A stretch of DNA of 64,000 bases, taken from contig CAYIOP010000001.1 of the NCBI GenBank assembly GCA_964365185.1, forward strand, positions 180,579 through 244,578, written 5' to 3'. Shown here piece after piece: positions 6,515 through 51,041 of this stretch. The notes under the pieces were generated by a model. It was given only the letters and a program-made list of their open reading frames with translations, was not told where the DNA came from and did no database searches. The position numbers and the translations under genes are program-made. Each line of letters begins with the position of its first letter. Within the stretch, counting starts at the first letter, position 1. The stretch comes from an uncultured Candidatus Saccharibacteria bacterium. GTDB taxonomy: Bacteria; Patescibacteriota; Minisyncoccia; UBA6257; 2-01-FULL-56-20.

Positions 6515-6546
6515 TTCCTCCGGAGGAGGATCCGCCTTTGGCGGAA
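6515..6546 (+). repeat. Dispersed triple-palindrome repeat, copy A (TCCTCCGGAGGAGGATCCGCCTTTGGCGGAA)
   Basis: One of 5 near-identical copies in this window (see findings). Confidence 0.7.
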
Positions 6547-6609
6547 ACTAAGCTCCCCTATCCATGCGCATGTAACATGTATCACGCAACATGTAACAAG
6601 AGAATTTTA

Positions 6610-6651
6610 CTATTTTCTGCTCTCCTTATGTAGGGTGTGTTTTCTACACCC
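6610..6651 (-). other. Degenerate tandem duplicate of the rpmG 3' end (encodes ...[13 protein letters not shown])
   Basis: Reverse-complement translation matches the last 12 codons of rpmG, with many synonymous differences. It lies ~65 nt downstream of the real stop. Confidence 0.5.
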
Positions 6652-6713
6652 CCTCGACTCATTTCATTCGCTCGGGGCAAGCAATAGTTTACCCAGAGAT
6701 TGAAGTTGTATTT

Positions 6714-6881
6714 CTACTTTTTACTTTCCTTATGTAGGGTATGCTTGCGGCACCAGCTACAATACTTTTTGAGTTCTATTTTTTTCTCAACTTTCTTTTT
6801 GTTTTTATCGGCATAAATAGCCCGTTTGCACGTGGCGCATCTTAAACGTATTAATCTTTCGGCGCGTTTGATTTTGGCCAT
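6714..6881 (-). CDS. rpmG: 50S ribosomal protein L33 (zinc-ribbon form)
   Basis: Hand translation gives [55 protein letters not shown], with CxxC...CxxC. It is missing from the ORF track (55 aa). It sits upstream of tRNA-Trp, as in many bacteria. Confidence 0.8.
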
Positions 6882-6979
6882 GGTAAATCATGAAACATGT
6901 AGCATGTAACATGTAGCCAATATAGTAATCCAAAAATCGAAAGGAGTCAATTTGGGGGTTAAATTCTGTGTTTCTTTAT

Positions 6980-7008
6980 TTGCCTCTGCTGTCTAAATAC
7001 TGTAAATT
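6980..7008 (+). promoter_or_regulatory. Candidate sigma70-type promoter for tRNA-Thr(GGU)
   Basis: TTGCCT-17 nt-TGnTAAATT (extended -10), ~15 nt upstream of the tRNA 5' end. Confidence 0.3.
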
Positions 7009-7023
7009 GAATATTGCCCAAAA

Positions 7024-7095
7024 GCCGTTGTAGTTCAGTGGCAGAACGTTTTCTTGGTAAGAAAAAGGTCGGGAGTTCGATTCTCCCCAACGGCT
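7024..7095 (+). tRNA. tRNA-Thr (anticodon GGU)
   Basis: GCCGTTG acceptor, D-arm AGTTCAGTGGCAGAAC, anticodon loop TT-GGT-AA, T-arm GGTTCGATTCC. CCA is not encoded. Confidence 0.8.
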
Positions 7096-7107
7096 CAAAA
7101 GTGCTTG

Positions 7108-7150
7108 CAAATAAAAACCCCGGCACCTTGGTTGGTGACGGGGGTTGGGG
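7108..7150. terminator. Hairpin between tRNA-Thr and purB (possible bidirectional terminator)
   Basis: CCCCGGCACC/ttggtt/GGTGACGGGGG with flanking A/T runs. Confidence 0.35.
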
Positions 7151-7151
7151 T

Positions 7152-8513
7152 TTAACTGTTTGAATCCGCAGGTTTGGCAGAATTCTTAAAGATATATTCG
7201 ATTCCTTCTTTGATGTAGGTAATGGGATCGAAACATTTTTTTAAGGCATCCGCGCCAAGAATATCGAGGGCAGTTGCGGATTTTGTTTCGGAAATTGATT
7301 CACTGCAAAGTGAGCGGAAGAGATCGCCGTCATTGTTCTCGCTAACTTTAAATGAAAGGCGTTGGAGATAGATGTAGGCATCGTCGTAACTTATTCCGGC
7401 ACCCATCAGGGCGTTACGAACTTTCTGACTAGCCCAGGTGCCGTGAGTGGCTCCCAGGTTTTGTTTCATCCTTTCTGGAAAAACCTCGAGATTCTGAACT
7501 AGCCACTTCATTTTGTTTGCCATGTAGTGGACTAGGCCAGTGGCAGTCGGAAACCCTTCTCTTTCAACGTTGGATTGGGAAATGTCTCGGCATTCTGGAG
7601 TAGCAATGTTTTCGAAGGCAGCACCAGTATGACCTCTTACTTCTATCGCCATACCCATCAGCCGTTCAGTTAAAATAGGATTACGTTTGTGGGCCATAGC
7701 AGAAGAGCCGCGCTGTCTTGGACTTCTGGGCTCTCTGAGTTCGCCGACATCGCTTCTCATCATTTCCCAAAAAGTTCTGGCAATTTGTTCAATACTGGCG
7801 GCAGCAATGGCTAACACGCTCATTAAAGCGGCGTGTCGATCGCGCTGAAGGATCTGGGTTTCGGCGGGAGCTTGTTTAAGTCCAAGGATTGCCAAAGCGT
7901 CATCCCCTATGCGGGGATCCATACCGGCGAAATTACCGACGGCTCCGGAGATTTTAGCTTCGCCTAACTCTTCGATCATGATCCGATCTACTCGATTTAT
8001 ACTCCTTTTAATAGATTCAGAGAAAACAAGCAGGAGATGACCGAAGGTGTCGGGTTCGGCGAACTGGCCGTGGGTGCGAGCAATCATCAAGGTCCATTGA
8101 TGTTCGACGGCTTTTTGTCGCAGAGCTTGATAGAGTTCGAATAAACTCTGACGAATTAAAGCCATAGCTTCGCGGAGCATGAGCACAAGGGCCGGATCTT
8201 CGATATCAAAGGAAGTAAGATATCTATGAAATTCTTCTTTGCAGTGACCCCATCCATTCGCCACTAGATATTCTTGAACCGAAACAACGAAGGCAATGAA
8301 GTCGTGATTATATTCGGCCTCAAGCTCATCGATCCGATCGGGATTGATGACTATGCCGGAACTGATGATATCTTGATAAATACCTCTATCAAGATTGCCG
8401 GCTTTAAAACGCGCTTCGAGATAGGCCTTTTCAACTTCAAGCCAATACTCGAATTTAGTTTTGAGATCCAGCCAGAGCTTTTTCATATCTGGCAGAGTGT
8501 AACGTTTCAGCAT
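7152..8513 (-). CDS. purB: Adenylosuccinate lyase
   Basis: 453 aa with the fumarate-lyase signature GSSAMAHKRNP. Confidence 0.9.
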   Translation of the reverse strand: MLKRYTLPDMKKLWLDLKTKFEYWLEVEKAYLEARFKAGNLDRGIYQDIISSGIVINPDRIDELEAEYNHDFIAFVVSVQEYLVANGWGHCKEEFHRYLTSFDIEDPALVLMLREAMALIRQSLFELYQALRQKAVEHQWTLMIARTHGQFAEPDTFGHLLLVFSESIKRSINRVDRIMIEELGEAKISGAVGNFAGMDPRIGDDALAILGLKQAPAETQILQRDRHAALMSVLAIAAASIEQIARTFWEMMRSDVGELREPRSPRQRGSSAMAHKRNPILTERLMGMAIEVRGHTGAAFENIATPECRDISQSNVEREGFPTATGLVHYMANKMKWLVQNLEVFPERMKQNLGATHGTWASQKVRNALMGAGISYDDAYIYLQRLSFKVSENNDGDLFRSLCSESISETKSATALDILGADALKKCFDPITYIKEGIEYIFKNSAKPADSNS

Positions 8514-8614
8514 AAAATACCTCCTGCTGAAGTTAGGGTTGCATTTCGTTTATGGTTTACAAGTTACCGAGAGATATAGTAATCCTGTGAATAATTTTTG
8601 TCCAGTTTCTAATG

Positions 8615-8686
8615 AGCCAGCGGTCGGATTTGAACCGACGACCTACTGTTTACAAAACAGTTGCTCTGCCACTGAGCTACGCTGGC
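8615..8686 (-). tRNA. tRNA-Thr (anticodon UGU)
   Basis: Reverse complement is GCCAGCGTAGCTCAGTGGCAGAGC...ACTGT-TTTGTAA-ACAGT...GGTTCAAATCC...CGCTGGC. Confidence 0.8.
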
Positions 8687-8790
8687 GATAAACGACTATA
8701 TTAATGAGATTAGCGAAAAAATGTAAATAAATCAAAAGCCCGTCTTATTACGACGAGCTTTGAAAATGTTTTCGGATGACAAGATGACAA

Positions 8791-9168
8791 TTAGTTGAAA
8801 GTAATTTCTGGGCAAATTTTTTTCCAGAATGCGACGATCGCCTTTCCTAGGAATCTGGGGATGTCGGATTTGATGATGCGGCGCATGACAAAAAATAGAA
8901 TAATCCCGAATAGGAGAATTAATAACCACTCTCCCAGGTCATTCCGAACAATATGAACTGCATTATCAGAACCGGGAATGATAATATGTTTAACCAGCCC
9001 ATAAATCAGTAGAGATACCGCAGCAAATATGAGTGCGATAAATAACCCGGTTATGACGATTTCGTGATATCTTTCACTCCAAATTTTGAAAGGCCAGCAA
9101 AATTGCTCTTGGCCAAATCGATCTACCTTCGCAAATTGAAGCGATGGCCGTCCGCCGAAAATAAGCAC
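8791..9168 (-). CDS. Hypothetical small membrane protein (two predicted TM helices)
   Basis: ORF with hydrophobic segments. An overlapping out-of-frame ORF (9074..9400) suggests a possible frameshift or a spurious call. Confidence 0.3.
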   Translation of the reverse strand: MLIFGGRPSLQFAKVDRFGQEQFCWPFKIWSERYHEIVITGLFIALIFAAVSLLIYGLVKHIIIPGSDNAVHIVRNDLGEWLLILLFGIILFFVMRRIIKSDIPRFLGKAIVAFWKKICPEITFN

Positions 9169-9403
9169 CAGCCAACCAAGGATTAGCCAGGCCAGAAATA
9201 TTCCAGGTCAAACAATGAAAAAAGCGAAGATGAATCTTGGCAGCAATCCACAGAGATGGAATTTCTGTTGGTAAAAGGGAAGGTTTGAATAACGAAAGCA
9301 AATTTTCGCAACCCACCCGTCTTTCCTGAGTGTCATAAAACCTCCGATAAATTGTTAAGTTGCTTGGGGTAAAAATAGCAGTTTTAGCTAATAAAATCAA
9401 GGG

Positions 9404-9432
9404 TTTTGAGGCGCTAAAATATAGGTTATAAT
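9404..9432 (+). promoter_or_regulatory. Candidate dnaE promoter (near-leaderless)
   Basis: TATAAT at 9427-9432 lies 12 nt before the ATG. A weak -35 (tTTGAg) is present. No SD is visible. Confidence 0.3.
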
Positions 9433-9443
9433 AGACCTATCTT

Positions 9444-12400
9444 ATGGGAAAATTTGTCCACTTACATACACATTCTCATTATTCCCTGCTCGATGGGCTC
9501 GCGAAAATTGATGACTTGATTTTACGCACTAAGGAATTAGGGATGGATTCTTTGGCGATTACGGACCACGGGGTTTTATACGGCGCAATTGAGTTTTACA
9601 AAAAAGCCAAGAAGGCCGGCATCAAGCCGATTTTAGGAGTGGAGGCGTATATCGCTCAAGGCAGTCGGCATAAAAAAGAGGCGGGAGAGAAATACTATCA
9701 TTTGATTTTACTTTGCGAGAATCTGACTGGTTGGAAAAATCTGGTGAAACTGATATCAATCGCGCATTTAGAGGGTTTTTATTATAAGCCGAGAATTGAT
9801 AAGGAACTTTTAAGAGAATATCACGAGGGGTTGATTGGCCTTTCAGCTTGTTTGACCGGCGAGGTAAATAAATTATTAGTCAATGATAAATTTGAAGAAG
9901 CCAAACAAGCGGCAAAAGAATACGAAGAAATTTTAGGCAAAGAAAATTTCTTTTTAGAAATTGGCGATCACCCGAATATTCCGGAAGCGACAAAACTCCG
10001 AGAACGAGTTATTAAACTTTCGAAGGAAGTGGAAATAGGAATGGTGGGCACGCAAGACATCCATTACGCGAAACCAGAGGATGCGGAATACCACGACATA
10101 CTAGTCGCGGTTCAGACCGGCAGCCGGCTGTCAGACGACGACCGATTAACGCTTAAGGCCGATGATTTTTCTATGACCTCGCCTGAGGTAATGATAGAGA
10201 AATTTAAAGATGTGCCGGAGGCGATTATAAATACCGTAAAAATCGCGGAGCGATGCCAGGTTGAGCTTGAGTTGGGAAAAATTATTCTGCCAAATTTTCC
10301 GAAACCGGACGGCAAAGCCGCGAATGAATATCTAGAAGAACTAATTCAAGAAAGAATTAACAAAAGATTCCCCGGAGAAAAATTAACTCAAGAAATAAGA
10401 GATCGACTTCAAATGGAACTGGGAGTAATCGAGAAAACCGGATTTGCGGATTACTTTTTGATTGTTCAGGACTTTATTCAATGGGCGAAAACGCATGGCA
10501 TTGCCGTTGGTCCGGGCCGGGGTTCGGCCGCCGGCAGTATTGTCTCGTTCATATTGGGCATTACGGATATTGACCCGATTGAATACGGACTGCTATTTGA
10601 AAGATTTTTAAACCCAGACAGAATTCAGATGCCGGATGTGGATGTTGATTTTGCTGACACCGGCCGCGATAGAGTTTTGGCTTATGTTAAAGAAAAATAC
10701 GGAGAAAATCGCGTGGCCCAGATTATTACTTTTGGAACAATGGCGGCCAGAGCCGGAGTGAGAGACGCGGGGCGAGCCATGGGCCTTTCATATAATTTCT
10801 GCGATCAGCTGGCAAAACTGATTCCTTTTAACGCCAAACTAGACGAGGCAATAGAGAAAGTGCCAGAGTTAAAAGAATTTTATGAGACCAATGAAGACGC
10901 CAAACGAGTGCTTGAAGCGGCCAAACACTTAGAAGGCGTGGCGAGGCACGCTTCGGTACATGCTTGCGGAATAGTCATTTCAAAAGAATCGCTAATGGAA
11001 TATTTGCCGCTTCAGCTGGCTCCGCAAGACAAAAACAATATTATTACACAATTTGAGATGCACGCGGTTGAAGACCTGGGACTTTTAAAAATAGATTTTT
11101 TGGGCCTTAAAAATTTAACTATTATCGAGGAAACAACAAAGTTAGTGAAAGAACGACAGGGAATAAATATAAAAATATCGGAGTTACCGCTGAATGACGA
11201 AAAGACATTTAAACTACTAAGAAGAGCGGATACCACGGGAGTTTTTCAATTGGAGGGCGGGGGCATGAGGCGATATTTAAAAGAACTGCAGCCATCGGAA
11301 CTTGAGGATATTATTGCCATGATTTCTCTTTACCGGCCGGGAACGCTCGACGCGGGAATGGTGCCGCATTATATTTCCCGCAAACTGGGCAGAGAGAAAG
11401 TGACCTATCTTCATCCCAAATTGGAGCCAATACTAAAAAAAACATACGGCATTATGGTTTACCAAGAGCAACTAATGGAGGTGGCGAGGGTGCTCGCGGG
11501 ATTTACTTTTTCAGAGGCCGATACCTTAAGAAAAGCGGTGGGGAAAAAAATAAAATCATTACTTAAAGAACAGGAGGAAAAACTTATCTCCGGAATGATT
11601 AAAAACGGAATTGACAATAATAAAGCCAAAGAAATTTGGCAGTGGTTTGAACCCTTTGCCAGGTACGGATTTAATCGCTCACACGCGGCGAGCTATGCGC
11701 TTATCGGATATCAAACAGCGTACTTGAAGGCCAACTTTCCTGAAGAATTTACGGCGAGCTTGTTAAATTCAGAATTAGACGATATTGATCGCATCGCATT
11801 TCTGGTTGATGATGCCAAAAAAGCCAATATCTTAATCTTGCCGCCGGATATTAATAAAAGCTTTGTAAATTTCACGCCGGAAGATGGAAAAATCAGATTT
11901 GGACTTTTAGCCATTAAAAATGTAGGTGAACAAATTGCCAATAATATCATCAAAGAGCGAATCCGGGGTGGCGACTTTCAGGATTTGAAGGATTTTTTGG
12001 GCAGAATTCAGCATAAGGACCTAAACAAAAAATCATTGGAGAGTTTAATTAAGGGAGGGGCGTTAGATAATTTAGGCATTGAAAGAAATCAACTAATTCA
12101 AAATATTGATGAAATTTTAAAATTTAGCGCGGTGACCAAAAGAGGTTTAGTTTCAAATCACAACTCTCTTTTTGGAGAAACGATGGTTGGTTTTAGCGCG
12201 TTGAAATTAAAAGAGGCGCCGCCAGCAACTCCAGAAGAAAGATTAATTTGGGAAAAAGAGCTTTTAGGACTATATCTTTCGAACCATCCACTTAAAAGAT
12301 TCGCGGATAAAATGAAGGCCTCACAAGCCAGGCCAATCAATGAAGTCAAGCTCATTAAAAACGAGAATCAGATTTTTCGAATCGCGGGCTTGCTTTCTAA

Positions 12401-12620: not shown

Positions 12621-12692
12621 TCCATCACCCTTTAGAAAAGGATGAGGGATAAATTTTGCTAAGACAATGACTAGCGCGGAAATATCTAGTTT

Positions 12693-13106: not shown

Positions 13107-13154
13107 GTATCAGGTGTCAGATACCAAGTAAACTCGCAATACCTGAAATTCAAC

Positions 13155-14609: not shown

Positions 14610-14618
14610 GAATAACTA

Positions 14619-15077: not shown

Positions 15078-15170
15078 AGTGATGATAAATATTTAGCTTA
15101 AGTTTACATAAAATTCTTCACAAACGCAAACAAAACCTCATTATTTAAAGCAGAAAATGCAGAAACTGAT

Positions 15171-15815: not shown

Positions 15816-15950
15816 TTAAATAGAAAGTAGAATTTAGAAAATAGAAAATAGGATTTAGAAAAGAAAAAGTAGAAAATAAAAAATAGGATTTAGAAAATAG
15901 TAAGTAGGAAGTATTGGGTATTGGGTATTAGGATTATTATAGCATTACTT
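15816..15950. repeat. AT-rich low-complexity spacer of TAGAAAATAG/GGATTTAG motifs
   Basis: Tandem, imperfect TAGAAAATAGGATTTAGAAAA units. The same motif family recurs in many intergenic spacers in this window. Confidence 0.5.
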
Positions 15951-17379: not shown

Positions 17380-17387
17380 ATTTTTTT

Positions 17388-19158: not shown

Positions 19159-19162
19159 AAAT

Positions 19163-20550: not shown

Positions 20551-20605
20551 AAATTTAGATAGAATTTAGAAAATAGAAAGTAGAAAATGGGTTGGGTTAA
20601 TAAAT

Positions 20606-20986: not shown

Positions 20987-21036
20987 AAAATTTAGAAGTT
21001 AGAAAGTAGAAAATAGAAAATAAGAATTGATAATGA

Positions 21037-24898: not shown

Positions 24899-24943
24899 AT
24901 TTAAATAGAATTTAGGATTTAGGATATAAAATCGATTTGGGAA

Positions 24944-26701: not shown

Positions 26702-26748
26702 GTTTTTAGGATATAGAATAGAGGATTTAGAATATAGGATTATTAGAT

Positions 26749-27303
26749 TTAGGATTTTTTCATTTTGGAAATTTCGAGCAAGTTGCCTTTTGAGCCAGGA
26801 ACAGCGCCTCTTACGAAAAGAAGATTATTTTCTTTATCAATTTTAGCCACTTTTAAATTAATCACCGTAACCCGATCGGTTCCCATGTGGCCGGCCATTT
26901 TTCTTCCGGGAACAACTCTTTGGAAAGCAGTGCTACCAATAGAGCCGGGGGCGCGATGACGATTTTTCTGGCCATGAGTTTTAGGCCCGCCTCCAAAACC
27001 GTGACGCTTCACGACTCCTTGAAATCCCCTGCCTTTTGATATGCCGCTCACTCTTACTAAATCGCCTTCGGAAAAAGCGGAAACATTGATTGAATCCTGA
27101 AATTTTAAGTCCAAATTCATCCTTTCAGTTCTGAATTCTTTTTTGTTTTTGCCCAAAGACAACTGAACGGCTTCGTAATTATGTTTATCTTTGGTTTTAA
27201 TTATGGAGACAAGATTGGGCTCGGCTTTAATAACCGTAACCGGAGTCACTTTGTCGCCTTCCCAGATTTGATCCATTTTTATTTTTTTGCCGAGAATAAA
27301 CAT
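26749..27303 (-). CDS. rplC: 50S ribosomal protein L3
   Basis: L3 family sequence. Repeat copy B lies 20 nt upstream of its ATG. Confidence 0.9.
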   Translation of the reverse strand: MFILGKKIKMDQIWEGDKVTPVTVIKAEPNLVSIIKTKDKHNYEAVQLSLGKNKKEFRTERMNLDLKFQDSINVSAFSEGDLVRVSGISKGRGFQGVVKRHGFGGGPKTHGQKNRHRAPGSIGSTAFQRVVPGRKMAGHMGTDRVTVINLKVAKIDKENNLLFVRGAVPGSKGNLLEISKMKKS

Positions 27304-27321
27304 ATTGATAAAATTTCAATT

Positions 27322-27355
27322 ATTCCGCCGGAGGCGGATCCGCTTTTGGCGGACA
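27322..27355 (+). repeat. Dispersed triple-palindrome repeat, copy B
   Basis: ATTCCGCCGGAGGCGGATCCGCTTTTGGCGGACA. Confidence 0.7.
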
Positions 27356-27371
27356 ATTTAGGAATTGCGAT

Positions 27372-27401
27372 TTAAAAAAACCGAGGTTAAATCTGGCCTC
27401 G
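27372..27401 (-). terminator. Intrinsic terminator in the rpsJ-rplC spacer
   Basis: On the minus strand, CCGAGGCCAGATTTAACCTCGG is followed by TTTTTTT. Confidence 0.55.
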
Positions 27402-27589
27402 GCAATTTACCTTATTTGAGAAATCAAAATGGAATCAGATTGGCCGGGTGAAATTTTTTTTGAGTTGCTTCATAAAAAAATAAGGCCCTCCCTAATCAAC
27501 ATTCCCCCTAAGGTAAATCGCAAAACCTATGGGGGTTATTCTACATTATAGAAATAAGGTTGTCCAGAGGAGAAAGGGAGATTTAGATG

Positions 27590-27634
27590 CCACTAAAAAA
27601 CCCAGATTTTACGGGGTTTTTTAGTGGTTTTAAG
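27590..27634 (-). terminator. Terminator-like hairpin immediately after the rpsJ stop
   Basis: On the minus strand, CCACTAAAAAACCC-cgtaaaatct-GGGTTTTTTAGTGG forms a 14-bp A/U-rich stem. Confidence 0.45.
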
Positions 27635-27644
27635 TCTACCGACT

Positions 27645-29274: not shown

Positions 29275-29281
29275 TTAATTA

Positions 29282-29316
29282 GGTGTTAGGTTATAGGTGT
29301 TAGGTTATAGGATGAT
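29282..29316. repeat. Tandem 14-mer AGGTGTTAGGTTAT x ~2.3
   Basis: AGGTGTTAGGTTATAGGTGTTAGGTTATAGG immediately upstream of the tuf start. Confidence 0.6.
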
Positions 29317-31922: not shown

Positions 31923-32012
31923 GTTAAAAATTTAAAATTTAAATATCAAAATTGAAAATGACAATGAAAAATTCAAAATAGCGAATGAATTAGACCACAT
32001 TCTAGTAACTCG

Positions 32013-32492
32013 TTATCTATTGGGACGATTGGCGAAGTGAGCAAAAGCGCGGTTGGCTTCGGCCATTCTGTGCGTGTCGAGTTTTTTCTTAATGGCCGCC
32101 CCTTCGTTTTTAGAGGCCGCAATAATTTCATTGGCTAGTTTATCTATCATGGAGATGCCTTTTTTAGACCTAGCGGACTGAATCAACCAGCGGCAAGCCA
32201 GAATAAATTTTCTCTCTGGAGCCACTTCTTGAGGAACTTGATAATTGGCGCCTCCCACTCTTTTTGAAACTACCTCTAGTAAGGGCGAAGTGTTAGCGAG
32301 GGCTTTTTCAAAAATCGTAAGCGGATCTACTTTGGTTTCTTTTTCTATTTTTTCTAAAGCCGAGTAAAAAACTTTGGCAGCGGTGCTTTTTTTGCCGTTC
32401 CAAGTTAAATAATTAATAAATCTTCCCAAATCAACGCGGTGGTATTTGAAATCGGGTTTATAGTGTTTTTTGTAAATTCTTTTTTTACGCAT
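32013..32492 (-). CDS. rpsG: 30S ribosomal protein S7
   Basis: S7 family sequence. Confidence 0.9.
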   Translation of the reverse strand: MRKKRIYKKHYKPDFKYHRVDLGRFINYLTWNGKKSTAAKVFYSALEKIEKETKVDPLTIFEKALANTSPLLEVVSKRVGGANYQVPQEVAPERKFILACRWLIQSARSKKGISMIDKLANEIIAASKNEGAAIKKKLDTHRMAEANRAFAHFANRPNR

Positions 32493-32581
32493 GTTCAGTA
32501 TTAAGTATCAAATATCATGTATCATGTATCATGTATCAAATTAGTTTTTAATTCTTGACACCTGATACCTGACACGTGACA

Positions 32582-32998
32582 CTATTTGGCTTTGGGGCGC
32601 TTAGCTCCGTACTTAGATCGTTGTTGTTTCCGGCCTTCGACACCACCGGTATCTAAAATTCCTCGCACAACGTGGTAACGCACACCTGGCAAGTCCTTAA
32701 CTCTGCCGCCTCGAATTAAAACCATCGAATGTTCTTGAAGATTGTGGCCTTCGCCGGGGATGTAAGCGGTTACTTCTGAACCGTTAGTTAAACGAATCCG
32801 GCAAACTTTTCTTAAAGCCGAATTTGGTTTTTTAGGAGTCGTGGTAAAAACCTTAAGACAAACTCCCCTTTTAAATGGAGAGGAGGAATCAAGGGGTCGA
32901 TTTTTTAAGGTATTAAAATAGAAAGACAAAGCCGGCGATTTGCTTTTAAACTTAATGGATTTTCTTCCTTTTTTAATTAATTGGTGAGTGGTGGGCAT
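32582..32998 (-). CDS. rpsL: 30S ribosomal protein S12
   Basis: S12 family sequence ([11 protein letters not shown]...). Repeat copy C lies 14 nt upstream of its ATG. Confidence 0.95.
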
Positions 32999-33011: not shown

Positions 33012-33045
33012 ATCCGCCGGAGGCGGATCCGCCTTTGGTGGAAGG
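33012..33045 (+). repeat. Dispersed triple-palindrome repeat, copy C
   Basis: ATCCGCCGGAGGCGGATCCGCCTTTGGTGGAAGG. Confidence 0.7.
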
Positions 33046-33399
33046 CGTAAGGTTGTAAAATGAAACAGAAGCCTGAATGTTAAAAAAATGAACTGCCCCG
33101 TGACAGTTCAAAAAGATAAGCTTTTTTACTGTTTAGGACATTGAAGATATGTTAGGAAAAATATGGATAAGTGTCAACTGGCGCTCGTATTTTCCTCTTG
33201 GAGAGCCGGCCTCGATTTTTTTCCAGCGAAAAATCGGGCCTGCATCTCGTCCCTATGGGTCCCGCCAGGGCGGGACACCAAGCCCATCTGGGACTCCGAT
33301 AGCCTCTCCAAAAGGAAAATATTCGCGCTGGTTTATTGATTATAAAAAATGCCGCGGTTCTATTTCTAGAATCACGGCAGAAAGTTATTTTTTTAAAAT

Positions 33400-40146: not shown

Positions 40147-40153
40147 GTAGGCG

Positions 40154-42313
40154 GTGATCAGGACTCAAACTCCGCTTTCTAAATTAACTCACATTAGTCC
40201 TAAATTTTTAAAGGGATTAGAAAGGTTGGGACTTAAAACAGTTGCCGATTTAATCTGGCACTTTCCCAGCCGTTATGAAGATTTTTCTCAAATTTATAAA
40301 ATCTCGGATTTAGAGCCGGGCCAGCAAGCCACTATCCAAGGCCTCATTAAAAAAATAGATACCCGAAGAAGCTTTAGGCGGCGAATGACGATTGTGGAAG
40401 CGCTCATACAAGATGAAACCGGCTCAATCCGCGCGGTTTGGTTTAACCAGCCCTATCTTAAAAATACCCTTCATCCTCAGAGATTAATGAATTTCTCGGG
40501 AAAAGTATCGATTTCCGAAAATGATCTCTATTTATCTCATCCTGATTATGAACTTTCAAATAGTGCCCAGGGGCAAGATACGCGACACACCGGAAGATTA
40601 GTGCCGATTTATCCGGAGACCAAAGGGCTCACTTCGCGGGCTCTACGTTTTATCATTCAACCCGTGCTTCGAGATTTGGAAAAAATGCCGGAGTTTATGC
40701 CGGAGGAAATACTCAATCGGGAAAATTTTCCGGAGATAAATCAAGCCATTCAAAAAATTCATTTTCCGGAAACAACCGAAGAATCGGAAAAAAATAAAGA
40801 ACGTTTCTCTTTTCAAAATTTATTCTTGCTTCAACTTTTTAATTTGGAGCAAAAACTAAAATTAGCCGGCCAAAGAGCGCCATCAATTATCTCCCAGATT
40901 CCATATATCAAAGAAATTATAGAAACCCTGCCTTTTGAGCTTACGGACTCTCAAAAAAAATCTCTGTGGGAAATTATTCAGGATATGGAACGTTCCTCTC
41001 CAATGAACCGCCTGCTTCAGGGTGATGTGGGCTCGGGAAAAACCGTGGTGGCGGCGATCGCGGCGCTTACCGCGGCTAAAGCCGGTTTTCAGGCGGTTTT
41101 TTTGGCGCCGACCGAGGTTCTCGCTTCTCAGCATTTTAAGACGATGAAAAGCTTATTTAACGGAATCAAACAGAAAAATAAAAATGAGACGCTTCCAACT
41201 TTAGGAATTTTAACATCCTCTCAATCAAAAATTTTCTGGCCGGATCTGGAAAATGAAAGTGAATGGAAAAAAACAGAATTTCGGAAAAAAATTTCAACCG
41301 CTGAGATAAAAATTATCATTGGCACTCACGCCTTAATTCAAAAAATAGTCAAATTTAAAAATTTAGGACTCACGATTGTCGATGAACAGCACCGCTTTGG
41401 CGTCAGGCAAAGAGCTCTACTTGCTCACGGACAGACGCAAGCAATAAGGCAGGCGGTACCGCATTTTTTAAGCATGTCGGCCACTCCAATTCCGCGAACA
41501 CTGATGCTCACGGTTTTTGGGGACTTAGATTTGTCGATTATTGACGAATTACCGAGTGGCCGAAAAAATATCATCACCAAAGTGGTGGCACCAGAAAATC
41601 GTCTCAAGGCCTATGGCTTTATTCGCGAACAAGTTAGAAGAGGTCGGCAAGCGTTTGTTATTTGTCCACGCATTGAACCCTCGACTAACGACCAAAAACT
41701 AACTAGCCGCGAAAAGAAATTATGGGAGGTAAAGTCGGTTAAAGAAGAGTATGAAAAACTATCCAAGAAAATTTTTACTGAATTTAAAGTAGAAATGCTC
41801 CACGGACAAATTAAGTCTAAAGAAAAGGAGAAAATAATGAGCGATTTTAAAGACAACAAAATTCAGATTCTGGTTTCCACTTCCGTGGTTGAAGTTGGAG
41901 TAGACGTGCCGAACGCGGTTATCATGATGATTGAAGGCAGTGACCGATTTGGCCTCTCTCAACTCTACCAATTTCGCGGGCGAGTGGGGCGAGGCGAACA
42001 CCAATCATTTTGTTTTTTATTTACCGAATCACAGAGCAGAACCACTGAGGCGCGGCTAAACGCCTTAATTAAGGCCAAAAACGGCTTTGAGCTGGCGGAG
42101 TTGGATTTGAAATTCCGCGGCCCGGGAGAGTTTTTGGGGGCTGGCCAGAGCGGAATACCGGATATTGCCATGAGGGGACTGCAAGATATGAATTTGGTTA
42201 AAACCAGTCGTGAGGCGGCGCTAAAAATTATGGGGGCTTCCCAAGGACTTAAAAAATATCCCCTGCTTAAGGAGAAACTAGATGAGTTTGAAAGACGGTT
42301 GCATAAGGAGTGA
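40154..42313 (+). CDS. recG: ATP-dependent DNA helicase RecG
   Basis: Wedge domain, SF2 helicase motifs (GDVGSGKT, DEQHRFG) and RecG N-terminal pattern HFPSRYEDF. Confidence 0.9.
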   Translation: MIRTQTPLSKLTHISPKFLKGLERLGLKTVADLIWHFPSRYEDFSQIYKISDLEPGQQATIQGLIKKIDTRRSFRRRMTIVEALIQDETGSIRAVWFNQPYLKNTLHPQRLMNFSGKVSISENDLYLSHPDYELSNSAQGQDTRHTGRLVPIYPETKGLTSRALRFIIQPVLRDLEKMPEFMPEEILNRENFPEINQAIQKIHFPETTEESEKNKERFSFQNLFLLQLFNLEQKLKLAGQRAPSIISQIPYIKEIIETLPFELTDSQKKSLWEIIQDMERSSPMNRLLQGDVGSGKTVVAAIAALTAAKAGFQAVFLAPTEVLASQHFKTMKSLFNGIKQKNKNETLPTLGILTSSQSKIFWPDLENESEWKKTEFRKKISTAEIKIIIGTHALIQKIVKFKNLGLTIVDEQHRFGVRQRALLAHGQTQAIRQAVPHFLSMSATPIPRTLMLTVFGDLDLSIIDELPSGRKNIITKVVAPENRLKAYGFIREQVRRGRQAFVICPRIEPSTNDQKLTSREKKLWEVKSVKEEYEKLSKKIFTEFKVEMLHGQIKSKEKEKIMSDFKDNKIQILVSTSVVEVGVDVPNAVIMMIEGSDRFGLSQLYQFRGRVGRGEHQSFCFLFTESQSRTTEARLNALIKAKNGFELAELDLKFRGPGEFLGAGQSGIPDIAMRGLQDMNLVKTSREAALKIMGASQGLKKYPLLKEKLDEFERRLHKE

Positions 42314-42339
42314 AAGATTAAATTATAGGTGTTAGGTTT

Positions 42340-42373
42340 TTCCTCCGGAAGAGGATCCTCCTTTGGCGGAAGG
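42340..42373 (+). repeat. Dispersed triple-palindrome repeat, copy D
   Basis: TTCCTCCGGAAGAGGATCCTCCTTTGGCGGAAGG. Confidence 0.7.
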
Positions 42374-42432
42374 TGAGAGGTGATAGAAGAGAGAAGATAG
42401 AATATTGAGATACTAATGAAATTAAAAAAATA

Positions 42433-43911
42433 TTACCATTTAGCTAGACACAAAAACCTAATACCCGCCGACCCACTAGCGCCGCAACCAACGTTACCTC
42501 CTGCTGAATTAAGACCGTATAAACAAATCGCAGTAACTCCGATAGCATTAGTACAAGATGTTGCACCACTCGATGGGGCGTTCGCTACAACAGAATAAAG
42601 ATAAAGTCCACCGCTTAAACCACTAGAACTTCTAAGTAGCGTCGCGGAGACACCGGATGCGGGAGCGATATCTAATTTTGCTCCTGGCGAGGCGACTCCA
42701 ACTCCCACGTTTGTTCCATCATCATAAATAACACTGTTTGTTAAAGTGGCTCCGCCTGCAGCCCATTTCGATATATAATTTTGTGAGCCGCTGCCGGGAT
42801 TGGCGGCGGTGGTTTGGCGAGTGCCGTCTGGGAAAACAATAGCCGTACCGGATTGTGATAACCTAATATCATTTTGATGAGTGGACGTTGCGGTAAATCT
42901 AGAAGTGCCGGAAACATCAAGTTTATAAGTCGGATTACTTTGGCCAATGCCGACATTGCCTTTGACTGCGGCGAGGGTAGTGGTGGCAGAAGTGTAGAAA
43001 GTGACATCAGGTAATCCGGCGCTACCGACTGAAAGAGAGCCGGTGAAAAAAGAATTTAAACCGACCTCAAATGACGCTAACTGGGATGGATTTAGCACTC
43101 CAATTCCTATTGCTCCGTTATTTTTGAGAATCAAGTTATATTTGCTTGGTATAGCACCGTTATTAAAAATTAGATCGCCGTTCGCCATTTTAACTGAAAA
43201 TTGAGAAGTTCCGGTTGAGCTTTTAAAATCAATTAAATCAAATCCGGTTGCTCCTCCTTGAAGAATAGTAAGAGGATGGGTTAATGGAGTAGAAGTAGCG
43301 TTGACGCCTAATTTACCTGGAAAATAATAGTTGCCGTTGCCAGTTAAAGAACCAAAAGTACCAGCGGAAACATTGCCGGCATTAATAGTAATGGAAGCGC
43401 CATTCGCAACAATAGTGCCAGAGGCATAGATGTTTTGGGCTCGAATGGTATTAGCTAAAAGACGGCCGCGAACATAAATTCGGGGGGTGTCTTGATCGAT
43501 TCCAGAATCATAAAAACCTGTTAAATCCGTCACATCATCTGGATGAAGAAGACTGCCAATACTGATACCTACGCGATCACCGAATGGAGGAGTAGCAGTA
43601 CTATTACGGATAGCAACAAAAGTATTATAAGAAGTTGGTAAACTTGCGCCAAAACGACCATCAGTGATTTTAAAAAGATAATTCTCGCCACCAAAAAGAG
43701 GAGTAGTAATAGTAAATTTGGTATCAGAAGGAACGGTTGAAGAACCGATAATTAAATTACTGCCGTTGGTATTTAAGATACCACTTCCGCCGGGCGGAGG
43801 ATCTGTTGGCCCGACAAAGGCCCGCGCTACCCAAATCCCGAGCGGCATTACCAAAACAACCACGAAAACAGTAATAAAGATTTTGATAAGGTTGATATTT
43901 TTAGCTTTCAT
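42433..43911 (-). CDS. Secreted Gly/Ser/Thr/Asn-rich repeat protein (predicted beta-rich surface protein)
   Basis: N-terminal hydrophobic anchor, 492 aa, compositionally biased (G, S, T, N, A). It is the last gene of a 5-gene minus-strand cluster. Confidence 0.45.
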   Translation of the reverse strand: MKAKNINLIKIFITVFVVVLVMPLGIWVARAFVGPTDPPPGGSGILNTNGSNLIIGSSTVPSDTKFTITTPLFGGENYLFKITDGRFGASLPTSYNTFVAIRNSTATPPFGDRVGISIGSLLHPDDVTDLTGFYDSGIDQDTPRIYVRGRLLANTIRAQNIYASGTIVANGASITINAGNVSAGTFGSLTGNGNYYFPGKLGVNATSTPLTHPLTILQGGATGFDLIDFKSSTGTSQFSVKMANGDLIFNNGAIPSKYNLILKNNGAIGIGVLNPSQLASFEVGLNSFFTGSLSVGSAGLPDVTFYTSATTTLAAVKGNVGIGQSNPTYKLDVSGTSRFTATSTHQNDIRLSQSGTAIVFPDGTRQTTAANPGSGSQNYISKWAAGGATLTNSVIYDDGTNVGVGVASPGAKLDIAPASGVSATLLRSSSGLSGGLYLYSVVANAPSSGATSCTNAIGVTAICLYGLNSAGGNVGCGASGSAGIRFLCLAKW

Positions 43912-43918
43912 TTTTTTG

Positions 43919-44365: not shown

Positions 44366-44373
44366 TTAAATTT

Positions 44374-44913: not shown

Positions 44914-44921
44914 GGAAATTA

Positions 44922-45989: not shown

Positions 45990-46014
45990 TAATCATCTTG
46001 CTTGCTAGAATTTT

Positions 46015-46422
46015 TTACAATAAACCAAACCAACTAAAAAGATTAAAAATATTAATATCAGTTTCAACAGTTAGAGCCACTAAAGCCGCGCCCAAAATTA
46101 GAAGATCAAATTCAAAACCATTGACTAGAGGTTTTTTGGTCGCGATTTTCCAGATATTTATTATTAAAAATTGAATAATAAGTAGGATGGAAATCGGCTG
46201 AACTAAAATTCCAACAATTAAAAGCAGACCGCCCACAAATTCGACAATCGCCACAACAGGCGCCCAAAAATTCCCGGGTTTAAAACCAACGCTCGATAAC
46301 CATTCGGCGGTGCTTTTTAGATTTTTTAATTTCGGCCAACCGTGAGCAACTAAAATCACGCCCAAGATAATTCTTAAAAAGAAGATGGCCCAATTGCTAA
46401 ATATCCAAAAGAAAGGAAACAT
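46015..46422 (-). CDS. DoxX-family membrane protein
   Basis: Four-TM small membrane protein with a DoxX-like pattern (LRIILGVILVAHGWPKL...). Confidence 0.6.
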   Translation of the reverse strand: MFPFFWIFSNWAIFFLRIILGVILVAHGWPKLKNLKSTAEWLSSVGFKPGNFWAPVVAIVEFVGGLLLIVGILVQPISILLIIQFLIINIWKIATKKPLVNGFEFDLLILGAALVALTVETDINIFNLFSWFGLL

Positions 46423-46506
46423 TAATATTTATTATAACATATTCAAAATAGCAAGATATAATTAACTTGATAACTTATGGCTTATAATTTATAAATTAAA
46501 GGTAAT

Positions 46507-46578
46507 GGCCCTATCGTCTAATGGTTAGGACATCGGCTTTTCAAGCCGGTAACCGGGGTTCGACTCCCCGTAGGGCTG
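46507..46578 (+). tRNA. tRNA-Glu (anticodon UUC)
   Basis: GGCCCTA acceptor with G1-U72, anticodon loop TT-TTC-AA, T-arm GGTTCGACTCC. Confidence 0.75.
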
Positions 46579-46596
46579 CGAATTAAATTTTTAAGA

Positions 46597-47784
46597 ATGG
46601 AAATCCTGGCCATCGAGACGAGTTGCGATGAAACAGCCTTGGCTTTAGTTCAGGCCGAAGGCGGCATTGCAAATCCGCGTTTTGAGGTTTTGAAAAGCGT
46701 GGTGGCTTCGCAGATTGCCGTACACCGGCCATTTGGGGGAGTTGTGCCTAACCTAGCTAAAAGAGAACACCTTAAAAATTTGCCAATATTGTTCGAGCAA
46801 ATTTTTAAAAATTATCAATTACCAATTTCCGATTTTTCAAAGAAATCTCAAAAAGATAAAAAGATGCGTGCTGTAGGATACGGGTTACAGGATGTAGATT
46901 TGATTGCGGTTACAGTGGGACCAGGGCTTGAGCCGGCGCTTTGGACGGGAATTAATTTTGCCAAAGAAATTGGCAAAGTTGGCAAATCGCCCTCCTTCGC
47001 CAAGGCTGCGGCGGGCAAGCAAATGGTAAATCGCAAAATTGTTGGAGCTAACCATCTGGAGGGCCACCTATATTCCTTTCTTTTGCCGAATCGATCTATA
47101 ACCTATAACCTAAAACCTAAAACCTTATTTCCGGCTGTTGCTTTGATTGTGAGTGGTGGACATACGGTTTTGTTGAAAATGGATAGTTTAGTGAAATGGG
47201 AAAAAATCGGAGAAACAAGAGATGACGCAGTGGGCGAGGCATTTGATAAGGTAGCGCGGCTTTTAGGACTCCCCTATCCGGGCGGACCGGAGATTGAAAA
47301 AATTGCCCAAAAAGGAAGCTCGACGTCTATAAATTTTCCAAGACCGATGATTTATGAGAAAAATTTTGATTTCAGTTTTTCGGGCCTGAAGACGGCGGTG
47401 CTTTATCACTTGCGTGATTTAGGATATAGCCATCAGCCACTAGCCACTGGGGTAAAAAAATTACTAAACCCTATACCCAAAACCCTAGTGGCTAATATAG
47501 CGGCGTCTTTTCAGGCGGCGGCAATTGAAGTTTTGGTTAAAAAAACAATGCGGGCGGCGCAAGAATTTGGCGCTAGGTCGGTTTTGCTCTCCGGTGGAGT
47601 GGCGGCCAACGCTTTTTTGCGAAATAGTTTAAAAAAATCGGCGAGTAAGGCCGGAGTTCAATTTTTAGTGGCGGATAAAAAATATAATACTGACAATGCG
47701 GTGATGATCGCGGCCGCCGGGTATATGACGTATTTACGCAAGAAAAAATACCCGTTTAAAGCAAACGGCAACCTTGAAATTTAA
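46597..47784 (+). CDS. tsaD: tRNA N6-adenosine threonylcarbamoyltransferase TsaD (Kae1/Gcp family)
   Basis: N-terminal ILAIETSCDETALAL and an ASKHA-fold sequence. Confidence 0.9.
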   Translation: MEILAIETSCDETALALVQAEGGIANPRFEVLKSVVASQIAVHRPFGGVVPNLAKREHLKNLPILFEQIFKNYQLPISDFSKKSQKDKKMRAVGYGLQDVDLIAVTVGPGLEPALWTGINFAKEIGKVGKSPSFAKAAAGKQMVNRKIVGANHLEGHLYSFLLPNRSITYNLKPKTLFPAVALIVSGGHTVLLKMDSLVKWEKIGETRDDAVGEAFDKVARLLGLPYPGGPEIEKIAQKGSSTSINFPRPMIYEKNFDFSFSGLKTAVLYHLRDLGYSHQPLATGVKKLLNPIPKTLVANIAASFQAAAIEVLVKKTMRAAQEFGARSVLLSGGVAANAFLRNSLKKSASKAGVQFLVADKKYNTDNAVMIAAAGYMTYLRKKKYPFKANGNLEI

Positions 47785-48264
47785 TCATTCCACTATAGAA
47801 GAATATTCATTTATAATGGAATAGAAAAAAGGTATGCTTTGGGCGAATGGGAATCTTTCTATTTAGAATTAAGAATTAGGAATAATGAATTAGGAGATAA
47901 TCTTATTGAAATTTCTGACTGGATTTTGTAGAATAATTTTGAAATCTTTCACTAGATTTCTCTGACTCCGTAGTGAGCGAAGTGCTACTTGCCTCTGTTC
48001 ATCTTACCCAGTTCCAAGTAGGTGTCTTACCAAATAATCCACCACTTTGCCATGACCTACGGGGTCTTTTTTTATTTCGATTAAATAGGTTGATTTTTAA
48101 AGATTGTTTCCTATAATGATTATGCTCCTTCTATGACAATAGTGGGAGTAAATTGTTTCTAGCACCCGGTGGGATGAAGTACAGATAGTCAACACTTCAT
48201 AACACCGGTGCTTTTTTATTTGATTGATTGGAAAACTTAAGAAAATTAAGTAAAATCATTAGAT

Positions 48265-51041
48265 ATGAGTGAACTTGGACCGAGATACGATCACAAAGAA
48301 ATTGAAGATAAGATTTATAAACTCTGGGAGAAATCCGGGTATTTCTCCGCCGAAGGCGGATCCGCCTCTGGCGGAAATCCTGATAAGCGCAAACCCTATT
48401 CAATAATTATGCCGCCGAATAATGCGAACGGCTCGCTGCATTTGGGGCACGCGGTAGGACTGACTTTGCAGGATATTTTAATTCGATACTGGCGGATGCA
48501 AGGTCGAAAAACGCTTTGGCTGCCGGGGGCGGATCACGCGGGATTTGAAACCCAGGTGGTGTATGACAAAAAACTGGATAAGGAAGGACGGAATAGATTT
48601 ACCATTCCCCGCGAGGAACTTTGGAGAGAAATTTGGGATTTTACACAGACCAACAAAAAATTGATGCAGGAGCAGACCAAGAAACTCGGAGCTTCTTGTG
48701 ATTGGTCGCGCGAGCGATTTACGCTGGACCCGGAAATTATAAAAGTCGTTTATGAGACCTTTGAACAGTTATATAAAGACGGCTTGGCTTACCGCGATTT
48801 AAAAGTGGTGAACTGGTGCCCTAAACATCGCACCGCGCTTTCGGATTTGGAAGTAAAATTTGTGGAGCAAGAAGACCCGCTTTATTTTATAAAATACGGA
48901 CCGCTTACGGTGGCGACAGTGCGTCCAGAGACGAAATTTGGCGACACAGGGCTCGCGGTTAATCCTAAAGACGCGCGATATAAAAAATATATAGGTAAGG
49001 AAATAGAGGCAACCGGAGTTTTGGGACCGCTTAAATTTAAAGTGATTGCGGATGAGGCGGTGGACCTAAAATTTGGCACGGGAGTGGTTAAAGTGACACC
49101 AGCACATGACCAGACGGACTTTGAAATTTGGCAAAGGCATAAAGATGAAATCCCGGGACCAAAGCAGATTATTGATGAGTTGGGGCGACTGATGACTAGT
49201 AGCGGACTCGGCGAGTACGGAGGGTTGAAAGTTATGGAAGCGCGGGAAAAGGTGGTGGAAGCAATGAAGCAAATTGGAATTTTAGAAAAAGTAGACCCGA
49301 ACTATAAACACCAAATCGCGACTTGTTATAAGTGTGGCAACACGCTTGAGCCATTGCCTAAGATGCAGTGGTTTATTCGTATGACTACTCAAGCTAAAAG
49401 CGAAAAGCTAAAAGCGAAAAGTAATGGAAAGTCGCTTAGGGATTTGGCGGTGGAGGCGGTTAAAAGCGGAAGGGTAAAATTTACGCCGAAGCGGGCGGAG
49501 AAAGTTTTCATGCACTGGATGAAAAATATTCGGGATTGGAACATATCGCGGCAGATTGTTTGGGGAATTCGGATTCCGGCGTGGTTTTGCGTTAGTTGTG
49601 GGAAAGAGAAAATTAATCCTCTTATAAAATCCAAGTGGTTTTTGGTGCGACACGGAGAAACGGATTGGAATGTTGAGGGAAGGGCAAATGGTCATACGGA
49701 TATACCGCTGAATAAAATAGGATTTCAACAAGCTAATATGGCCGCTGAAAAATTAAAAGGTGAAAATATTGATTTGGTTCTATGCTCAGATCTTAAACGA
49801 GCTTCTCAAACCGCAGAGATTATAGCTAAAAGATTAGGTGTTGAATTAATAATAGATAAAGATCTGAGAGAAAGAAACATGGGCGTTGTTGAAGGAATGT
49901 TAAGAGAGGAATGGAAACAAAAACATCCAAATATGTCAGAAAGTTTAGAAAGTAGGCCGCTAGACGGAGAAAGCTTAGGTGAATTACAAGATAGAATATT
50001 TAAAACTTTTAATAAGCACAAATCACAGCATAAACATAAAAATATTGTCCTAGTAACTCATGGCGGCTCAATTAGATCATTGTTAGGCAAACTCAGAAAT
50101 ATGAAATTTGAGGATTGGGCTCATTTACAGTCAAAAAATACCGAAATTTTTAAATTTGATATTAGCGAAGATTGTGGAAAATGTGGTTTAGATTTATACG
50201 AGCAAGACCCGGATGTTTTTGATACTTGGTTTTCGTCGGGGCAGTGGCCGTTCGCGACTCTAATGAGTCGTGAAAGTTCAAAGTTAAAAGCGAAAAGCGA
50301 AAAGTTGGGAAAGGACGATTTCAAAAATTTCTATCCGACGGATGTGATGGAAACGGGCTATGACATTTTGTTTTTCTGGGTGGCGAGGATGATTATGCTG
50401 GGGATTTACCGAACCGGCAAAGTGCCTTTTAAAAACGTCTACTTGCACGGACTAGTGCGCGACAAAGACCGGCAGAAGATGTCTAATCCAAAGGCAATGT
50501 GATTGACCCGCTGGGCGTAGCCGAGACCTACGGCACGGACGCGGTTAGAATGGCGCTCGTTGTTGGCAATACGCCCGGCAATGACATTGTGATTTCAGAG
50601 GACAAAATCCGCGGGTATCGAAATTTCGCCACGAAAATTTGGAACGTAGCCAGATTTGTGATGATGAACTCGCCCTCCAAAATTTTGCGGAGCAAAACTT
50701 GGGAGGGTAAACCTTCTTTCACTACGCAAGATAAAAAAGATTTAGCGGCGCTTAAGAAAATAAAAACACAAGTGGCTAACCATATTGAAAAATTCGAATT
50801 TCATTTGGCGAGTGAAAAAGCGTACCACTATTTCTGGCATACTTTGGCTGATAAAATAATCGAAGAGACCAAGCCTAGATTGAACAGGAAGGATTCGAAA
50901 GATGCGGCAGTGGCTTATTTTAAACTCGAGACCGTTTTGCTTGAGTCGTTAAAGATACTGCACCCTTTTATGCCGTATGTGACTGAAGAGATTTGGCAGA
51001 AATTTAGGCCGGGAACAATATTGATGATAGAAAAATACTAA
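48265..51041 (+). CDS. valS: Valyl-tRNA synthetase carrying a nested histidine-phosphatase domain and a -1 frameshift in the KMSKS codons
   Basis: Colinear with E. coli ValS: PPNNANGSLHLGHA, TLWLPGADHAGFETQVV, CP1 TVRPETKFGDTGLAVNP / GTGVVKVTPAHDQTDFEIWQRH, VFDTWFSSGQWPF, QKMSNP|KGNVIDPL, GYRNFATKIWNVARFVMMN. Reading frame 1 ends at 50502; the frame continues as 50488..51041. Confidence 0.85.
48344..48377 (+). repeat. Dispersed triple-palindrome repeat, copy E (in-frame inside valS, encoding AEGGSASGGN)
   Basis: TCTCCGCCGAAGGCGGATCCGCCTCTGGCGGAAAT. Confidence 0.65.
49642..50169 (+). other. Histidine phosphatase (phosphoglycerate-mutase-like, RHG motif) domain inserted in the ValS zinc knuckle
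   Basis: LVRHGETDWN...LVLCSDLKRASQTAEII...LVTHGGSIRSLL, ~176 aa. It is flanked by CVSCG (upstream) and CGKCG (downstream). Confidence 0.7.

Follow-up and report, generated by a model that had tools for sequence, protein, structure and literature searches.

The repeat described here occurs in five copies, A to E, in a 64,000-nucleotide stretch (the window) of contig CAYIOP010000001.1, from an uncultured Candidatus Saccharibacteria bacterium (assembly GCA_964365185.1). An earlier note, made from the letters of the window alone, had described it as a structured dispersed repeat of the REP (repetitive extragenic palindrome) or MITE (miniature inverted-repeat transposable element) kind, and had proposed that it serves as a regulatory site at the heads of ribosomal protein operons or as a strand-oriented DNA signal. 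We conclude, with a probability of about 0.75, that we are dealing with an insertion element of 30 bp, palindromic and non-autonomous, similar to REPs and to the Rickettsia palindromic elements (RPEs), and that it is selfish DNA rather than a control signal for ribosomal protein genes. It is unusually small and taxonomically broad. The mobile unit would be two head-to-head copies of the 15-nt hairpin TCCGCC-NNA-GGCGGA, probably mobilised in trans; the conserved stems, compensatory changes, invariant loop A/T and free loop dinucleotides would then reflect the needs of a trans-acting enzyme and not those of the host, and the window copies upstream of rplC, rpsL and the tRNA-Trp gene would be insertions tolerated in leaders and spacers, not regulators.

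Comparison of filled with empty sites shows that the element enters DNA as an exact 30-bp unit, without target duplication or deletion. In the window, valS encodes ...WEKSGYF-SAEGGSASGG-NPDKRKP..., where 120 of the 120 closest homologues read ...G[YF]F-NPD...; copy E, correctly noted before as lying in frame, is thus an exact 30-nt insertion between TTC (Phe) and AAT (Asn). In rplC of locus L192 the element lies between TTC and AAA; locus L171 has the uninterrupted sequence gagttcaaagttcaaagttc/aaagttcaaagttgac (the slash marks the junction); in L192 this sequence is longer by the 30 bp of the element, and the flanks of the two loci are 87% identical. In rplR (L18), locus L193 reads ...gaaatt, then the element, then AAGGAC..., and its close relative L184 is empty (...gaaatt/AAAACG...). 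No target-site duplication was found in the valS, rplC or rplR comparisons. Copies decay after insertion, the series in L18 reaching SAKGESTSGG and then SALRGRDLASGG. This L18 loop is filled in several lineages at different stages of decay (Table 1), and is either a hot spot or the site of an old insertion with precise losses.

The insertion boundary falls between TTY and RAA. Of 127 copies, 101 have T at -2 and 100 have A at +2; the bases next to the boundary are T or C at -1 and A or G at +1, and R at -6 and Y at +6 are favoured less strongly. Both T(-2) and A(+2) are present in 92 copies, one of them in 50 and neither in 5, which fits two independent preferences of ~80%; the preferred site is therefore dyad-symmetric, RnnTTY/RAAnnY, and not a one-sided target. 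Since TT and AA are already present in the empty sites of the ValRS and L3 genes, they are part of the target and not of the element. Apparent 7-bp direct repeats flank 8 of 144 copies, but we rejected these as target duplications: the heptamer array is already there in the empty site of L171, and the repeats appear because the element sits between two units of pre-existing heptanucleotide tandem arrays.

It could be argued that the element spreads without an enzyme, by template switching or microhomology-mediated copying in which TTY/RAA is the microhomology and the hairpins promote strand dissociation. The lack of target duplication and the likeness of donor and target flanks agree with such a process, as do the failure to find a linked transposase and the frequent location of copies within heptamer tandem arrays, which are slippage-prone DNA. 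However, a microhomology of 2-3 nt would not place the boundaries so exactly and uniformly across more than 140 copies, and the process leaves unexplained why this sequence alone spreads, why there is a symmetric preference at -6/+6 and why the element occurs in about ten phyla. For these reasons we consider enzyme-free spread decidedly unlikely.

The consensus, TCCGCC-NNA-GGCGGA followed directly by TCCGCC-TNN-GGCGGA, consists of two abutting 15-nt hairpins, each with a 6-bp stem and a 3-nt loop. Because the two tandem hairpins have identical stems, the 30-mer is nearly its own reverse complement, a near-perfect palindrome centred on GGATCC, and its orientation can be read only from four loop bases. 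The earlier note was right about the palindromy and placed all five copies to within 1-2 nt, but the three overlapping palindromes that it distinguished are simply these two hairpins. A search with the 30-mer consensus at up to 3 mismatches finds four copies in the window against 0.00 expected from 100 shuffles. Copy D, which has 4 stem mismatches, was picked up by a half-pattern search, and with as many as 6 stem mismatches allowed, the 64-kb window yielded no further copy. Copies A to D have the loops GGA/TTT in common (chance 1/8), so that a shared orientation can be maintained for these four; copy E fits the consensus equally well on either strand.

Both strands of the copies other than D fold as two hairpins of -11 to -13 kcal/mol, with z about -4. 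The compensatory change that had been proposed for the first arm is found in copy A, where a G-C pair of hairpin 1 has become T-A (DNA fold -11.1 kcal/mol, z -4.1), but for copy D the proposal holds only in part, as the T-A pair is kept there together with C.A and T.C mismatches and the fold is no better than that of shuffles (z -0.3). Likewise, the plus-strand G.T pairs ascribed to copies C and D are present in C, and also in B, but not in D, whose C.A would wobble on the minus strand. In the coding copies that can be oriented, G.U and A.C in the mRNA sense stand at 2 versus 2. A strand-oriented DNA signal is unsupported because the element is palindromic, and the GC skew of the window follows gene strand and yields no replication direction.

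Compensatory change is also seen outside the window. Among 147 copies, the variant stem pairs under a tandem-hairpin model comprise 18 that are Watson-Crick compensated, 16 that are G.T and 28 that are mismatched, as opposed to 5 compensated, 13 G.T and 51 mismatched under a model of a single long hairpin. The single long hairpin was rejected since the covariation favours local hairpins. Compensation is seen at 5 of the 12 stem pairs, mostly as G-C to T-A. These compensatory changes support a structural constraint on the stems, and with it the description of the repeat as a dispersed REP/MITE-like element whose hairpin is constrained. In ~90% of copies position 3 of the first loop is A and position 1 of the second is T; the remaining loop bases are free to vary, and the two loops do not complement each other more than chance would allow.

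True single hairpins are ~10-fold rarer than doublets, and a search for cargo-carrying forms, in which the half-sites would be split by longer DNA, found none. Other spacings of TCCGCC...GGCGGA are background or ordinary terminators. At positions 9592-9627 of locus L188 there is a 36-nt variant, TCCGCC-TTGCGG-GGCGAGATCTCGCC-TCT-GGCGGA, in which the outer arms are kept and the central palindrome is AGATCT, not GGATCC. In genomes outside the candidate phyla radiation (CPR), the element or a single hairpin is also found inside larger composite repeats with other GC-rich hairpin modules, for example ...GTCATTCCGAGCGTAGCGAGG... (Table 1). The spacer upstream of rpsL in the window has a second GC-rich hairpin with a similar stem, GTCCCGCC-AG-GGCGGGAC, at 33259-33276.

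A pattern scan of one genome per species, in the GTDB release-232 collection, gave at least 119 loci with the 30-mer, and the figures that follow are for the matches listed. The loci are spread over about ten phyla of uncultured bacteria, mostly from groundwater and sediment. By the labels of the database records, about 59 belong to Patescibacteria, 12 to Omnitrophota, 13 to the Planctomycetes-Verrucomicrobia-Chlamydiae (PVC) group (Kiritimatiellae, Lentisphaerae, Planctomycetes, Verrucomicrobiota), 5 to Ignavibacteriota/Bacteroidota, 11 to records labelled Gammaproteobacteria and 10 to unclassified bacteria, with the rest from Elusimicrobia, Firestonebacteria, Chloroflexota, Firmicutes, Deltaproteobacteria and one Actinomycetota. 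No gene family is recurrently linked to the element, any one family being present at no more than 4 of the loci. A scan of viral contigs gave only 3 matches and therefore no pointer to a phage vector, and neither the PLSDB plasmids nor the INPHARED phages contained a match. Searches of the literature by sequence and by encoded peptide returned only cloning primers and the unrelated PARCEL repeats, and no description of a 30-bp element of this kind was found in the open-access literature.

The presence of a BamHI site, and the occurrence of the element only in metagenome assemblies, might raise the suspicion of a linker, adapter or other artefact of sequencing or assembly. The matches stem, however, from numerous projects that are independent of one another and use different technologies, Mb-scale contigs of the MFD-series metagenome-assembled genomes (MAGs) among them, and the same population has been assembled four separate times: four contigs obtained from Hainich groundwater (wells H43 and H41) match the window at 99.9% identity, each with copy C. 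The bias in reading frame, the preferred target and the occurrence of compensated and of decayed copies are biological signatures, and we regard an artefact as practically negligible. It is also highly improbable that the repeat is a DNA signal which a conserved host protein reads throughout the genome (an uptake sequence, for example, or a site like parS, Chi or dif). Its palindromy about GGATCC and its conservation across phyla would suit such a role, and CPR bacteria are thought to depend on DNA uptake, but the density is low and patchy (5 copies in the 64-kb window and 1 per ~74 kb in relatives), copies originate by insertion and not by point mutation, they decay and have no strand polarity, and the rest of the window shows neither a dearth nor an excess of GGATCC.

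Most copies are found within genes. By crude gene calls, 131 copies could be placed relative to genes, and 97 of these (~74%) lie inside open reading frames (ORFs). Of 125 sites, 84 lie within ORFs of at least 120 amino acids, and 71 of these 84 are in phase 0, which encodes a flexible S-A-x-G-G-S-A-x-G-G loop, versus 6 and 7 in the other phases; most simply, this frame bias is a survival filter. The 30-mer amounts to 10 codons and is open in all frames on both strands, and therefore its insertion into a gene is not automatically lethal. The host genes include those for ValRS, L3, L18, AtpD, AspRS, PheT (twice), DnaJ, TsaE, PolA (twice) and type IX secretion system (T9SS) sorting domains, as well as a class-I synthetase with a copy next to its KMSKS motif. 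One copy (L026, 1239-1268) has TGA as its first loop, an in-frame stop that truncates a T9SS C-terminal sorting domain (...NYPNPF-SA(stop)GGSAFGG-NPETK...). The T9SS tails of L036, L052, L089 and L090 hold copies at equivalent F/D or F/N positions. The intergenic copies are ~2-3-fold over-represented relative to the non-coding fraction, and are distributed among tandem, divergent and convergent spacers in background proportions.

Copies B and C do lie 20 and 14 nt upstream of the start codons of rplC and rpsL, as previously noted, and have the same polarity relative to these genes; together with the excess of intergenic copies in the window (4 of 5 versus ~26%), this placement is what speaks for the double hairpin as a protein- or RNA-binding site that controls translation or transcription from these leaders. 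The leaders of relatives argue otherwise. No doublet is present upstream of rplC in about 40 examinable spacers, or upstream of rpsL in 11 examinable loci. In the relatives a terminator-like hairpin with a T-run stands 15-35 nt before the rplC ATG, and copy B, which lies between the rplC start and such a hairpin (about 27375-27405), breaks into an otherwise conserved order of terminator-like hairpin, short spacer and ATG. Copy C likewise is downstream of a terminator-like hairpin, at 33089-33110. Elsewhere the majority of copies are within ORFs of unrelated genes, the Rfam covariance models include no family that matches the element, and copies decay after insertion. A cis-regulatory function of this sort, very unlikely on these grounds, is largely refuted by the absence of positional conservation. 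In this lineage the S10-L3 junction is hypervariable, a zone of insertions that invariably ends in the T-run terminator-like hairpin just before rplC; the rpsJ-rplC gap measures 341 nt in the window (27304-27644), and in about 40 relatives (loci L123-L202) it ranges from 84 nt to over 5000 nt.

We also considered the element as an intrinsic terminator and rejected it, as T precedes and A follows the hairpins (tttt-element-aaaa), a polarity opposite to that of the terminators of these genomes (aaaa-hairpin-tttt). No copy of the element was called in a terminator scan. A further alternative is that the element is selfish in origin and that hairpins in leaders have secondarily been kept as 5' stem-loops that shield the mRNA from 5'-end-dependent decay. 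In relatives, a stem-loop whose sequence varies comes after the predicted rpsL promoter (TTGACA-17-TACAAT). This stem-loop is a single hairpin of the element type in L171 (2097-2111, TCCGCC-ATC-GGCGGA) and L201 (TCCGCC-AGA-TGCGGA); it lies ~8 nt past the -10 box and, in L201, some 35 nt downstream of the TTGACA box, a position that is shared despite diverged surroundings and corresponds to the inferred mRNA 5' end; other relatives have unrelated stem-loops at the same spot. However, these are two cases only, both of them single hairpins and not the doublet, and in the window the doublet adjoins the start codon, with the best promoter-like site at least about 100 nt away, which makes such co-option unlikely.

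Several observations weigh against an insertion element. The 64-kb window, a housekeeping region with its closest homologues in Patescibacteria/Parcubacteria, revealed no transposase, HUH protein or reverse transcriptase, and nothing was linked to the element in the at least 119 loci listed. Missing from the element are both the guide and cleavage sequences that lie subterminally in IS200/IS605 ends and the GTAG/CGTC tag of REPs, and identity of stems across phyla is unusual for REP-like families. Because the genome scan demanded near-perfect stems, the stem conservation in that set is partly circular, and the unbiased set is small: 80 loci with RplC relatives (60-73% identity) contained 9 copies, one on a duplicate contig, and the 8 distinct copies in these 668 kb have 0, 0, 0, 1, 2, 3, 3 and 4 stem mismatches. 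Presence/absence polymorphism within a population was not seen, copy C being held by 4 of the 4 Hainich contigs. Finally, the intergenic excess in the window (P about 0.02), with two of these copies just upstream of ribosomal protein genes, leaves room for local co-option.

The element would most likely be moved by an enzyme that recognises hairpins on single-stranded DNA, for instance an HUH/Y1 transposase like those found in IS200/IS605 elements and among the REP-associated tyrosine transposases (RAYTs). These transposases likewise insert without duplication next to a short target. We offer this as a guess, and a rather doubtful one, as the target is two-sided and separate sequences for cleavage and guiding would not fit into the element. 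On a still wider but tentative reading, which probably goes too far, no mobile DNA unit smaller than the 30-mer might be known, and an undescribed insertion machinery with a broad host range, acting across at least ten phyla, might use it as substrate or leave it as product; candidates for such machinery are a hairpin-specific single-stranded DNA transposase or a template-directed 'writer'.

The element behaves like REPs, REPINs (doublets of REPs) and RPEs, yet falls short of what defines each of them. REPs are short GC-rich hairpin repeats with a GTAG (or CGTC) tag at one end (PMC3733652). The element shares with REPs and REPINs its short (20-40 bp) GC-rich hairpins, a doublet of inverted hairpins as the active unit, conserved stems with compensatory change, dispersal in spacers and sometimes in genes, and the lack of target duplication. 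Its consensus TCCGCCNNAGGCGGATCCGCCTNNGGCGGA and TTY/RAA flanks are, however, without GTAG/CTAC or CGTC/GACG, its hairpins abut without a spacer to give a total of 30 bp versus about 100 bp for a REPIN, and it is mostly intragenic, whereas REPs are predominantly extragenic and downstream of genes. In addition, REP families are normally specific to a species or genus but the element is common to about ten phyla, and no RAYT was found in the window, nor any gene recurrently linked at the listed loci. Like RPEs, the element is a palindromic repeat that lies in frame within functional protein genes and is translated as an extra peptide segment, and neither has a known mobilising enzyme. RPEs, on the other hand, carry the CGTC tag (PMC3733652), measure about 100-150 bp and are confined to Rickettsia and close relatives, unlike this untagged, cross-phylum 30-mer.

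As in the case of MITEs (Correia, ERIC, RUP and others), the element is non-autonomous, structured and dispersed, and may be co-transcribed with neighbouring genes. MITEs, however, are 70-300 bp long, with terminal inverted repeats of 15-30 bp, a non-coding core and a target-site duplication; the element has neither core nor duplication, and the whole of it is about the size of one MITE end. Elements derived from IS200/IS605 (PATE-like) also insert without duplication adjoining a short specific target, but their hairpins are subterminal, with cleavage sites and guide sequences set apart, their target is one-sided and their strand bias favours the lagging-strand template, whereas here the hairpins reach the ends and the target is two-sided. 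Our comparison with the mitochondrial GC clusters and 'byp' elements of yeasts and sponges draws partly on general knowledge. The short GC-rich hairpin elements of these mitochondria include GC clusters, repetitive hairpin-forming elements and byps (PMC2800124), which resemble the element as short GC-rich hairpins that invade AT-rich genomes, coding regions included, by a mechanism that is unknown. They are organellar and have no sequence relationship to it, and byps are skipped by the ribosome whereas the element, being open in frame, is most simply read through.

Table 1. Positions of the element copies, adjacent genes, related hairpins and repeat arrays (window coordinates unless a locus is named)
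Feature	Position	Strand	Remarks
Copy A	6516-6545	no strand	TCCTCC-GGA-GGAGGA, then TCCGCC-TTT-GGCGGA; intergenic, 46 nt upstream of tRNA-Trp
tRNA-Trp	6394-6469	-	gene downstream of copy A
Related single hairpin	6479-6493	no strand	CCCGCC-ATA-GGCGGG; between copy A and tRNA-Trp
Copy B	27324-27353	no strand	upstream of rplC; one T.G pair
rplC	26749-27303	-	gene downstream of copy B
Copy C	33013-33042	no strand	upstream of rpsL; one G.T pair
rpsL	32582-32998	-	gene downstream of copy C
Copy D	42341-42370	no strand	decayed; between convergent genes
recG	40154-42313	+	one side of copy D
ORF, function unknown	42433-43911	-	other side of copy D, convergent to recG
Copy E	48346-48375	+	perfect stems, loops GAA/TCT; inside valS
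Heptamer arrays	6569-6598, 15818-15900, 20559-20588, 21000-21022, 24906-24925, 26708-26741, 29279-29311		
Heptamer arrays, further	31927-31979, 32490-32538, 32556-32582, 47096-47125, 52255-52281, 56837-56865, 63199-63245		
L18 loop, filled	L198 16050, L199 16050; L166 8074; L193 15905; L188 9592		perfect in L198 and L199; 1 mismatch in L166; 36-nt variant in L188
L18 loop, empty	L184, L176, L125		
Composite repeats	L005 4569-4752 and 6390-6572; L004 343 and 542; L006; L112		BIME-like (bacterial interspersed mosaic element) mosaic appearance

Some other features of the window deserve mention. Throughout it, the intergenic spacers are made up of heptanucleotide units in degenerate tandem arrays, such as AAATAGA x12, CATGTAT x7 and AGGTTAT x6.7 (perfect), and similar flanks with a 7-nt period surround element copies in other phyla (L044, L073, L075, L045, L097, L192). 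The valS gene (region 48265-51041) is apparently split: its ORF stops within the KMSKS motif (...RQKMSNPKAM(stop)) at 50502, and an ORF at 50499-51041 that overlaps its end carries the anticodon-binding domain. It also holds an embedded histidine-phosphatase-like segment (...LVRHGETDWN...), for which the relative P0003 has PF00300, and two stretches encoded by heptamer arrays, at 49391-49421 and 50273-50306. Genes of the purine-biosynthesis type are present at 1799-5614, 796-1713 and 7152-8513, namely a purL-like FGAR amidotransferase, a formyltransferase and an adenylosuccinate-lyase-like gene; these are unexpected, as Patescibacteria-like genomes are usually without de novo nucleotide synthesis.

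The element is relevant to mobile-DNA and CPR biology, and little as a regulatory element. If our conclusion is true, a 30-bp sequence without coding capacity has colonised essential genes, including those for L3, L18, several aminoacyl-tRNA synthetases, ATP synthase beta and DNA polymerase I, in many phyla, and would be a source of 10-residue loop insertions that face annotators and structure predictors in conserved proteins. It would also caution against taking the position of a repeat beside a start codon as evidence of regulation. With its exact boundaries, defined symmetric target and many empty-site pairs, the element would provide a clean natural system in which to study the movement of REP-like hairpins, and it would be a ready marker of horizontal exchange in communities of uncultured ultra-small bacteria. 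Should it indeed be the smallest known mobile unit, it would trace gene flow between episymbiotic CPR bacteria and the other members of groundwater and sediment communities.

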